DNA of 32,000 nt from Candidatus Heimdallarchaeota archaeon B3_Heim. Lineage in GTDB: Archaea > Asgardarchaeota > Heimdallarchaeia > Hodarchaeales > Hodarchaeaceae. Location of the stretch: contig NJBF01000010.1 of the NCBI GenBank assembly GCA_003144275.1, positions 30,001 to 62,000 on the forward strand, in the 5' to 3' direction. Made by a program: the position numbers and the translations under genes. Each line of letters begins with the position of its first letter. Position 1 is the first letter of the stretch. Under the pieces are notes generated by a model. It was given only the letters and a program-made list of their open reading frames with translations. It did no database searches and was not told the DNA's origin. Below are positions 7,557-8,801 of the stretch, one piece after another.

Positions 7557-7760
7557 ATGATGATCCCTATACGGTGTTATACTTGCGGAAAAGTTATTGC
7601 CCACTATTATGATGATTTTTTAGACGGCATGAAAGCTGGTAAGGAAGCATCAGAACTACTAGATTCATTTGATCTAAAGCGATACTGCTGCAGAAGAATG
7701 TTAATTACACACGTAGAGCTTATTGATGATATTCTTACTTTTTCAAGCCCAGTTCGTTAA
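7557..7760 (+). CDS. rpoN: RNA polymerase subunit Rpo10 (N)
   Basis: MMIPIRCYTCGK...RYCCRRML signature. Confidence 0.97.
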   Translation: MMIPIRCYTCGKVIAHYYDDFLDGMKAGKEASELLDSFDLKRYCCRRMLITHVELIDDILTFSSPVR

Positions 7761-7764
7761 TTTC

Positions 7765-7873
7765 AGCCCCGTAGTGTAGTGGTCCATCACAGAGAGTTCT
7801 ATAGTACGAGTTCACAAAGCGTAGAACCATGGAGAAATACTCTCTAACCTCAGTTCGAATCTGAGCGGGGCTA
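7765..7873 (+). tRNA. Intron-containing tRNA with archaeal tRNA-Gln body; anticodon unresolved (CTG if two introns, CTA if one)
   Basis: Acceptor AGCCCCG/CGGGGCT+A73 (A1-U72), D arm GTGTAGTGGTCCATCAC, anticodon stem GAGAG/CTCTC, T arm CTCAG-TTCGAAT-CTGAG; 36 extra nt in the anticodon loop; CCA not encoded. Confidence 0.9.
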
Positions 7874-7889
7874 TCTTAGGAGGAATTAC

Positions 7890-8801
7890 GTGGTCAAACA
7901 AATAGGTATCCTAAGTAGAAATAAAGACTATTTCCCAACAACACGATTACTTAAGGATATCAACCAAAGAAATGATATCTCTGGTGTTTTTCTATCAACA
8001 CAATATGTTTTTCCATTAATTAGTTCTTCAGGTGCTGATGCTCGATTTGCGAACCAATCCTTACTCCCACTCTTGGGGATTGTTCCACGTATTGGAAGAT
8101 CTCAAACAGATTTGGGTATATTATGTTTGAAGCATTTTGAATTAATGAATATTCCAAGTACTCTTTCAGCAGAGGCTCTTTTTCTTTCACGAGATAAGTT
8201 TCGCTGCTATCAGGCGTTATCAAAGATAAAAGGTGTACAATTACCTAGAACTATATTAATTAATAACTCATTTCAGGCCGACCAGTTGTTAAAAGCTTTT
8301 AAATTTCCAGTGGTCATAAAACTACCTGACGCGACCCGAGGAAGTGGAAGTATGTTAGCGCCTAATCCAAAAACAGCAGAAGAGATCATTGAATCACTAT
8401 TTATGCGATCTTCTGAACCAATTATGATCCAAGAATATCTTCGATCTGGGCCTCTACATACATCTCCTCCGTCTGCGGATATCCGAGTAATCTACATAGG
8501 AAAGGAGATCATTGGCAGCATGAAACGAATAGCCCCAACTGGAGAATGGCGAACAAATTTTGCCCTTGGAGCTAATTGTGAAGCATATCAGTTGTTGGCT
8601 GAAGACGAAGAGCTAGTACATCAAATAGCAGAAAGAATTGGAATTGAAGTAGCTGGAATAGATCTTTTTCCTACCCAAAATGGGTTTTACATCCTTGAGG
8701 TAAACGCCTGTCCAGGATGGAAAGCATTTGAAATGGCCAATCCCAAGATAAACGTTGCTCAAAAAATAATTGATTATCTACTGAGAAAAATACGTCGGTA
8801 G
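7890..8801 (+). CDS. RimK-family ATP-grasp ligase
   Basis: RDKFRCYQAL, FPVVIKLPDATRGSG, IQEY, DIRVIY, WRTNFALG, AGIDL, LEVNACPGW; GTG start. Confidence 0.88.
   Translation: MVKQIGILSRNKDYFPTTRLLKDINQRNDISGVFLSTQYVFPLISSSGADARFANQSLLPLLGIVPRIGRSQTDLGILCLKHFELMNIPSTLSAEALFLSRDKFRCYQALSKIKGVQLPRTILINNSFQADQLLKAFKFPVVIKLPDATRGSGSMLAPNPKTAEEIIESLFMRSSEPIMIQEYLRSGPLHTSPPSADIRVIYIGKEIIGSMKRIAPTGEWRTNFALGANCEAYQLLAEDEELVHQIAERIGIEVAGIDLFPTQNGFYILEVNACPGWKAFEMANPKINVAQKIIDYLLRKIRR

Follow-up and report, generated by a model that had tools for sequence, protein, structure and literature searches.

A glutamine-type tRNA with a predicted CUA anticodon encoded beside rpoN in a genus of Asgard archaea

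Bacteria, phages and eukaryotes all provide known cases of nonsense-suppressor tRNAs. Those closest to the gene described here are E. coli supE and the suppressor tRNA-Gln(CUA) of crAss-like phages, where a change of G to A at position 36 of a glutamine tRNA gives an anticodon that would read UAG. Within the archaea the comparison lies with tRNA-Pyl, the only amber-anticodon tRNA that a literature search found described in archaea or in Asgard genomes; no non-Pyl example was encountered in that search. Pyl-using archaea retain TAG at 1-27% of their stops and read it ambiguously, such that an archaeal CUA tRNA is found beside many TAG stops (PMC12626013). Class B tRNA-Pyl carries a pyrimidine, C37, next to its CUA, and mutation of C37 to A raises suppression (PMC9499178).

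A further point of reference is the archaeal transamidation route to glutamine, mediated by a non-discriminating GluRS (ND-GluRS) together with GatDE, whose tRNA-Gln combines A1-U72, A73, a 7/4/5/5 cloverleaf and a 37/38 intron with a YUG anticodon and a purine at position 37. The A1-U72 pair is regarded as an identity element for GatDE. The discriminator base distinguishes the archaeal tRNA-Gln, with A73, from the bacterial form, with G73 (PMC9499178). Finally, the introns of tRNAs in Thermoproteales and Thaumarchaeota and of the multi-intron tRNAs of Asgard archaea can follow a relaxed form of the bulge-helix-bulge (BHB), with a 4-bp central helix, a 3-nt 3' bulge and a looser 5' site. What, then, is to be made of a glutamine tRNA that belongs to the archaeal transamidation route but appears to have acquired CUA, and that seems to be kept by selection in six species where TAG is still a common stop?

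The gene, its intron and the predicted anticodon

The gene lies on the forward strand at 7765-7873 of the window, the 32,000-nt stretch of DNA that was analysed, which corresponds to C10:30001-62000 of G000, the metagenome-assembled genome of a member of the Hodarchaeales, an Asgard group, of 3.95 Mb with 36% G+C. Direct reading of the sequence gives an A1-U72 acceptor stem of AGCCCCG (7765-7771) with CGGGGCT (7866-7872), a D stem of GTGT/TCAC, an anticodon stem of GAGAG (7792-7796) with CTCTC (7840-7844), a T arm of CTCAG-TTCGAAT-CTGAG and A7873 as the discriminator. With A1-U72, A73 and the standard 7/4/5/5 cloverleaf, the body is of the archaeal tRNA-Gln type; the YUG anticodon of that family is not found, since the sole supported splice yields CUA. 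The two strands of the anticodon stem are separated by exactly 43 nt (7797-7839), from which it follows that 36 nt must be removed. Both the acceptor and the 43-nt gap had been pointed out in the original prediction and are confirmed, as is its remark that neither CTG nor TTG occurs in the unspliced loop segment.

The 5' exon (7765-7802), delimited from the sequence, the ARAGORN -i call and the alignment of orthologues, holds the 5' strand of the acceptor, the D arm, the 5' strand of the anticodon stem and loop positions 32-37, TTCTAT. Splicing in silico at 37/38 places the anticodon CTA (C34 U35 A36) at 7799-7801, with U37 at 7802. Comparison of orthologues assigns 7803-7838 to a 36-nt intron at the canonical 37/38 position, leaving a 3' exon (7839-7873) with position 38, the 3' strand of the anticodon stem, the variable loop, the T arm, the 3' strand of the acceptor and A73, and no encoded CCA. 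At these coordinates ARAGORN -i reports a 73-nt tRNA with the anticodon cta and a 36-nt intron. ARAGORN in its default mode, which has no intron option, makes no call at 7765-7873, and Rfam, in gathering and E-value modes, has no match to the tRNA locus; both are blind to the gene because of the intron. Without its intron option ARAGORN finds only 16 tRNAs in G000.

The tRNA is placed in what reads as an operon-like arrangement, wedged between two genes of the same strand. Upstream, rpoN, for RNA polymerase subunit N/Rpo10 (7557-7760, from the ORF list), ends in a TAA stop 4 nt before the tRNA. Downstream, a GGAGG ribosome-binding site (7879-7883) stands between the tRNA and the GTG start at 7890, 16 nt beyond it, of the next gene, a unit that extends to 8801 in the sequence and ORF list and that encodes what looks like a RimK-type ATP-grasp ligase; a homologue of this ORF is present at 13 of 16 orthologous loci examined. 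As the GGAGG comes within 6 nt of the 3' end of the tRNA and the GTG start follows it (7874-7892), the tRNA is probably excised from a polycistronic transcript.

The original prediction had proposed that read-level variants at 7801-7802 would signal an assembly error. Independent contigs from two public DNA runs cover 7797-7803 and show no difference there, and with six assemblies and both run contigs in agreement an assembly error at 7801-7802 is rejected. An apparent spliced joint in the contigs of the four runs examined belongs to an intronless Gln(CUG) gene of another organism or of a paralogue.

Where the intron is cut was judged from the rpoN-linked tRNAs of related species, of which 16 full-length copies occur among the 21 further species that GTDB places in this genus, making 17 with the window copy. 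All 17 begin 3-4 nt after the rpoN stop, and all contain a single intron at 37/38, of 27-36 nt. The 3' splice site at 7838/7839 follows a central helix in which TTCT (7797-7800) pairs perfectly with AGAA (7833-7836), the latter followed by a 3-nt 3' bulge, ATA (7837-7839). The good helix originally proposed at this site is borne out by the alignment, where pairing reaches 89.7% over the 17 sequences in its columns (33-36 with 69-72) and the pair 33-72 covaries, being CG in eight and UA in eight. Taken together, cloverleaf and central-helix cells are 93.9% paired, compared with 37-53% in a control with slid partners, and both the pairing and the synteny of these orthologues are far beyond chance.

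Orthologue-arm folds and the alignment also place a hairpin within the intron (7806-7830), formed by ACG (7806-7808) with CAT (7828-7830) and GTTC (7810-7813) with GAAC (7824-7827). The first of these helices has one C/A mismatch in the window copy; its 3' strand is CGT in G013 and in one run contig, and run X1 has the variant 7829 A>G in this strand. At the junction of hairpin and central helix five unpaired bases (7801-7805) lie opposite two (7831-7832), a 5-by-2 internal loop, and thus the 5' splice site sits in a relaxed loop and not in a strict 3-nt bulge. The outer helix, the 3-nt 3' bulge and the 4-bp central helix of the canonical BHB are present in the 37/38 register, whereas a strict 3-nt 5' bulge with an inner helix is absent from the window's clade and present in the outgroups G009, G014 and G012. 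The looser 5' site is shared with the relaxed-BHB introns mentioned above; unlike in the Asgard multi-intron tRNAs, the intron here is single, in the canonical position and in no way unusual.

When the 17 loci are spliced in silico at 37/38, ARAGORN returns tRNA-Gln(ctg) for 11 and tRNA(cta) for six. The 11 have the loop YUCUGG, intron, N, which gives a normal Gln(CUG) with G37 (YU-CUG-GA loops), and the six, including that of the window, have UUCUAU, intron, N, which gives CUA with U37. The mature loop of the window's tRNA is accordingly predicted to be UU-CUA-UA, generated by removal of one intron at 37/38. Of the two outcomes originally put forward, it is the single 36-nt intron (7803-7838) with CUA and U37 that the orthologues downstream of rpoN decide for, the same register producing an ordinary glutamine anticodon in the 11 relatives.

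The other outcome was the removal of two stacked introns (7801-7823 and 7826-7838) to restore a normal CUG. Two-intron tRNA-Gln(UUG) genes do occur in G001 and G016, which lends the idea some plausibility, but the shared single intron of all 17 orthologues contradicts it. No BHB can be drawn for the first of the two introns, as had been conceded at the outset, and the tidy BHB claimed for the second, of 13 nt, cannot form since its CC/GG would have to close a loop of 2 nt. The exon GA (7824-7825) that the model requires is AA in G018, is also found in orthologues whose CUG is intact, and belongs to the covarying GTTC/GAAC hairpin of the intron. Furthermore, a search of the genome for another Gln(CUG) gene, as had been suggested, identified a separate, intronless one. 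Two-intron splicing to CUG is hence refuted by the comparison, and the single-intron CUA form is the one considered from here on.

Descent and conservation of the rpoN-linked tRNA

The 11 orthologous CUG genes of sister species show that the CUA tRNA descends from a tRNA-Gln(CUG, G37) gene that was redundant, since the GlnRS of the genus is served by G73-type tRNA-Gln(UUG) and (CUG) of its own. A pattern scan of genome contigs for more genes of the CUA type returned only the same five sister genomes, and a scan of metagenomes added one contig almost identical to G004. Five of the CUA species, among them G000, G020, G003 and G018, form a group with 51-61% identity at four-fold sites, and the sixth, G004, has about 28% identity to them.

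Across this divergence, the six CUA genomes agree at 65 of 73 exon columns, in comparison with 8 of 36 intron columns and 16.6% of the four-fold sites of flanking genes. G003 has a compensatory change from G-C to A-U in the anticodon stem. None of the six genomes departs from A36 and U37, and the three intron bases that follow them vary; the chance that two such sites would stay fixed at the neutral rate is about 0.03. Position 38, on the far side of the intron, may be A, T or G. The gene is therefore not decaying; the comparison shows that selection keeps it and points to the anticodon as one of the targets of this selection.

The history of the anticodon is not a simple one. In three trees the CUA-bearing G004 is the sister of the CUG-bearing G019, apart from the five-species CUA group, with support of 99/95 in the three-gene tree of the locus, 96/96 in the GatD tree and 99/99 in the GatE tree. 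The change from GG to AU at positions 36 and 37 must consequently have occurred twice, or once with a reversal, and with CUA-U37 present in two lineages the anticodon state itself looks selected. As a separate observation, position 72 of the acceptor is C, producing an A1-C72 mismatch, in the CUA-type G004 (L006) and in the CUG-type G012 (L084, L016).

Might the gene be an inert relic, a redundant tRNA-Gln(CUG) that was knocked out by mutation of its anticodon and whose decay is yet to come? It is redundant with the GlnRS-linked tRNAs, its position 38 varies among the CUA genomes, and it has been lost or has decayed in three relatives: the rpoN-linked tRNA is cleanly deleted in G005 (L175) and G010 (L173) and is reduced in G017 (L174) to a remnant in which T arm and acceptor are both broken. 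True decay, as in G017, nonetheless looks different from what is seen in the CUA genomes, where 65 of 73 exon positions remain invariant despite four-fold identities of 28-61%, the central helix of the intron is kept and the G003 stem change is compensated. On this evidence an inert relic is improbable, and a tRNA maintained by selection is preferred.

Two glutamine routes in one genus

A 2022 review states that archaea lack GlnRS, and GlnRS near the cox genes of Hodarchaeales receives a passing mention in one preprint. In G000 a genuine GlnRS gene is found at C76:3210-4994, matching TIGR00440 with 687 bits against a cut-off of 426. Within C76:3210-5723 (loci L119 and L085), this glnS adjoins tandem, intronless genes for tRNA-Gln(UUG) and tRNA-Gln(CUG), both of the bacterial G73 type and one with an encoded CCA, and the arrangement of glnS with its pair of G73 tRNAs is conserved across the genus. 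The second route consists of the archaeal GluRS (on C19 in G000) and GatDE with tRNAs of the A73 type, these being the rpoN-linked gene and, in outgroups, also a second gene with UUG and G37. The rpoN-linked tRNA thus differs from the transamidation tRNA-Gln of other archaea not only in having CUA and U37 instead of YUG and a purine, but also in its setting, where GlnRS and the G73 tRNAs already cover both glutamine codons. The number of GluRS and GlnRS copies is identical in the CUA and CUG groups.

G000 has only three tRNA genes of Gln type, the other two being the G73-type genes beside glnS, and in the CUA genomes no A73-type tRNA-Gln other than the CUA tRNA, the UUG gene included, was found. 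The CUA tRNA is therefore the sole A73-type candidate substrate for GatDE found in them. The genes for GatDE are nevertheless kept: gatD and gatE are intact wherever the full ORFs are assembled, which is in five of the six CUA genomes, and in G003 gatE runs off the end of a contig. As a side observation, the second A73-type tRNA-Gln(UUG) looks damaged in the lineages nearest to the CUA genomes, the G005 copy (L099, on C150) having an anticodon loop of 6 nt together with an A1-G72 mismatch and the G019 copy (L024, on C153) mismatched acceptor strands.

The GatDE of the genus falls in trees into two deeply split types (the G000 copy being C61:23274-26457, L155, with relatives L156-L172). Type 1, with the usual GatB_Yqey tail, is present in G019 and in those CUG-type genomes that were searched. 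The GatE of type 2 has 39% identity to that of type 1 over the first ~475 residues, after which the tail is without detectable similarity, and Pfam no longer recognises this C-terminal tRNA-binding tail as GatB_Yqey. An AlphaFold model of the type 2 tail gives a confident helical domain (pLDDT 89), for which Foldseek returns weak matches only, the matched proteins being GatB and human GlnRS. In all six CUA genomes, as in G005, no GatDE other than type 2 was found, and G019 carries both types. The co-distribution of type 2 GatDE with the CUA tRNA is phylogenetically confounded and may be taken as a lead, not as proof.

What is it about the archaeal route that would allow its tRNA, and not the one of GlnRS, to become an amber reader? 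Archaeal ND-GluRS is without the loop by which GlnRS recognises G36 (PMC2978374), and a G36-to-A change should for that reason be tolerated by the archaeal route and not by GlnRS. This fits with the A73-type copy, and not a G73-type one, having become CUA.

TAG as a stop codon and the possible role of the CUA tRNA

If TAG had been reassigned to glutamine, the genome would be expected to carry the marks of it. TAG ends 21.3% of ORFs of at least 200 aa in G000, alongside 15.6% and 25.4% in samples from two CUG-type relatives. When ORF coverage is calculated under alternative codes, TAG as sense adds the least, below TGA or TAA; the next in-frame stop comes at like distances after TAG, TAA and TGA; and a hexamer coding-potential screen has no TAG-specific signal. 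Pairs of ORFs joined by one stop show no enrichment of TAG (41, as against 93 for TAA and 57 for TGA), and of the ten best TAG-joined candidates examined with Pfam only a DDE transposase spans its TAG. A tblastn search of the genome with 516 outgroup ORFs met in-frame TAG 12 times, TAA 27 times and TGA 26 times, mostly in shadow frames, and the in-frame TAGs of these alignments were not matched to Gln. Cases in which a homologue extends across an in-frame stop are rare, and no commoner for one of the three codons than for another (15/610, 30/1216 and 40/1366). On the side of termination, aRF1 is unchanged, being single-copy and of the same score in the CUA and CUG groups. TAG is thus taken, from these comparisons, to be an ordinary stop in G000 under the standard genetic code, and TAG-to-Gln reassignment is rejected. 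Nor does a Pyl system account for the tRNA, given that the best match in a search for PylS reached 28 bits against a cut-off of 178 and that the body is not of the tRNA-Pyl type.

Individual genes with an in-frame TAG were then compared with their orthologues, in a screen that sampled an estimated fifth or so of the proteome. An otherwise intact ABC ATPase (C72:9676-10494, L181) has TAG where orthologues have Gln, and in an MBL-fold hydrolase (C48:53362-54243, L179) TAG takes the place of the Gln of a conserved FGNQ motif, the orthologue codons at both sites being CAG/CAA. In an LVIVD-repeat gene (C50:8120-9313) the TAG corresponds to Glu in orthologues, an ArsC-like gene matched only paralogues in the orthologue search, and a four-helix-bundle gene had no match in it. 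The intact TAG genes compared with orthologues amount to four (two Gln, one Glu, one with paralogues only), which are too few to decide, and the in-frame TAGs are read as recent nonsense changes or as C-to-T/G-to-A errors, not as proof of decoding. The lack of a TAG footprint is itself weaker than it appears, because the Pyl-using archaea likewise keep TAG among their stops and read it ambiguously.

The CUA tRNA is probably a weak natural amber suppressor. The proposed series of events begins with its transcription together with the rpoN operon and its release by end processing, after which, to judge from the comparison of orthologues, the tRNA endonuclease would splice it at 37/38 through the relaxed bulge-helix-bulge. 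Position 36 would not be read strictly by the archaeal non-discriminating GluRS, and the anticodon would not be read by GatDE, so that the CUA tRNA most likely continues to receive Glu, which is then amidated to Gln. It would then compete with aRF1 at UAG with low efficiency. U37 is very unusual for a decoding tRNA, and a pyrimidine at this position would weaken decoding, with UAG made ambiguous and not reassigned. The full proposal, that of a selectively kept, Gln-charged, low-efficiency amber reader that renders UAG ambiguous, is one to which we give about an even chance.

In this mode of action the CUA tRNA would work like a supE-type suppressor and like the ambiguous decoding of Pyl, and is a member of neither family. 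It shares the change at position 36 with supE and the phage suppressors but belongs to archaeal chromosomes, is passed on vertically in six species, contains an intron and U37, and would be charged by GluRS and GatDE in place of GlnRS; in contrast to the suppressor tRNAs of TAG-recoded phages, it is accompanied by no recoded set of genes with TAG as sense. With class B tRNA-Pyl it has in common a pyrimidine at 37, U37 in this case, but it comes without PylS or known TAG-containing targets and with a normal tRNA-Gln body in place of the compact Pyl shape.

Could the molecule instead be kept outside decoding? Here the RNA would be retained for its tRNA shape, with CUA holding it off sense codons such that the ribosome is rarely or never entered, for instance as a processing signal in the message of rpoN and the downstream gene or in a dedicated association with the tail-diverged GatDE or with GluRS, as their partner or substrate. 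Such a role would be in keeping with its tight fit between rpoN, whose stop lies 4 nt upstream, and the next gene, whose start follows after 16 nt that include the ribosome-binding site, with the missing genomic footprint of amber read-through, with U37 as a base that is poor for decoding, and with the retention of GatDE where GlnRS already serves CAA and CAG. Nevertheless, the tRNA has been deleted (G005, G010) or has decayed (G017) with rpoN still at the locus, and a processing role is thus not essential; a mere processing signal would, moreover, need none of the splice motif, A36 and U37, all of which are conserved, and CUA-U37 in two lineages points to selection on the anticodon. We regard a non-decoding role as possible, although unlikely. 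Should it be correct, the gene would plainly illustrate how a tRNA can be conserved for a function other than decoding.

Strong conservation and the missing amber footprint would also be reconciled if the mature tRNA were edited or modified back to a sense reader, as by conversion of A36 to an inosine that pairs with C and restores the reading of CAG. At other tRNA positions A-to-I editing is well established, but we know of no case at position 36 in any domain. Editing would in addition leave the accompanying G37-to-U change unexplained and would yield merely another redundant tRNA, and is on balance highly improbable. Weak amber decoding by a Gln-charged tRNA remains the preferred reading.

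A more specific form of this reading brings in the two glutamine routes. Capture of GlnRS with its own tRNAs may have freed the ancestral route of GluRS, GatDE and tRNA-Gln(A73), which would then have been re-aimed at UAG twice or reversibly, such that the tail-diverged GatDE and the CUA-U37 tRNA would constitute a dedicated and deliberately weak amber pair, a natural 'orthogonal pair' that leaves UAG ambiguous (Gln/stop) or that gives rise to regulated C-terminal extensions. This is put forward tentatively, as a conjecture with a good deal less than an even chance of being right. If decoding is true, the tRNA would add to Pyl a second, independent instance of stable codon ambiguity among the archaea, and would be an example of a redundant tRNA/enzyme route freed for a new codon after the gain of GlnRS; a re-aimed amber pair would, if real, have its setting in the closest archaeal relatives of eukaryotes.

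For annotation, intron-aware callers will label Asgard genes of this kind 'Pyl' or 'Sup', and comparison of orthologues resolves the splice. Other stop-anticodon calls of ARAGORN -i have different origins. A 'tRNA-Stop(tta)' at G000:C80:40049-40151 is, on inspection by eye, really a tRNA-Lys(UUU) with a 37/38 intron that the program misplaced, and calls of the same name at L100 (G001) and L103 (G016) are two-intron tRNA-Gln(UUG) genes, with one of the introns in the D arm.
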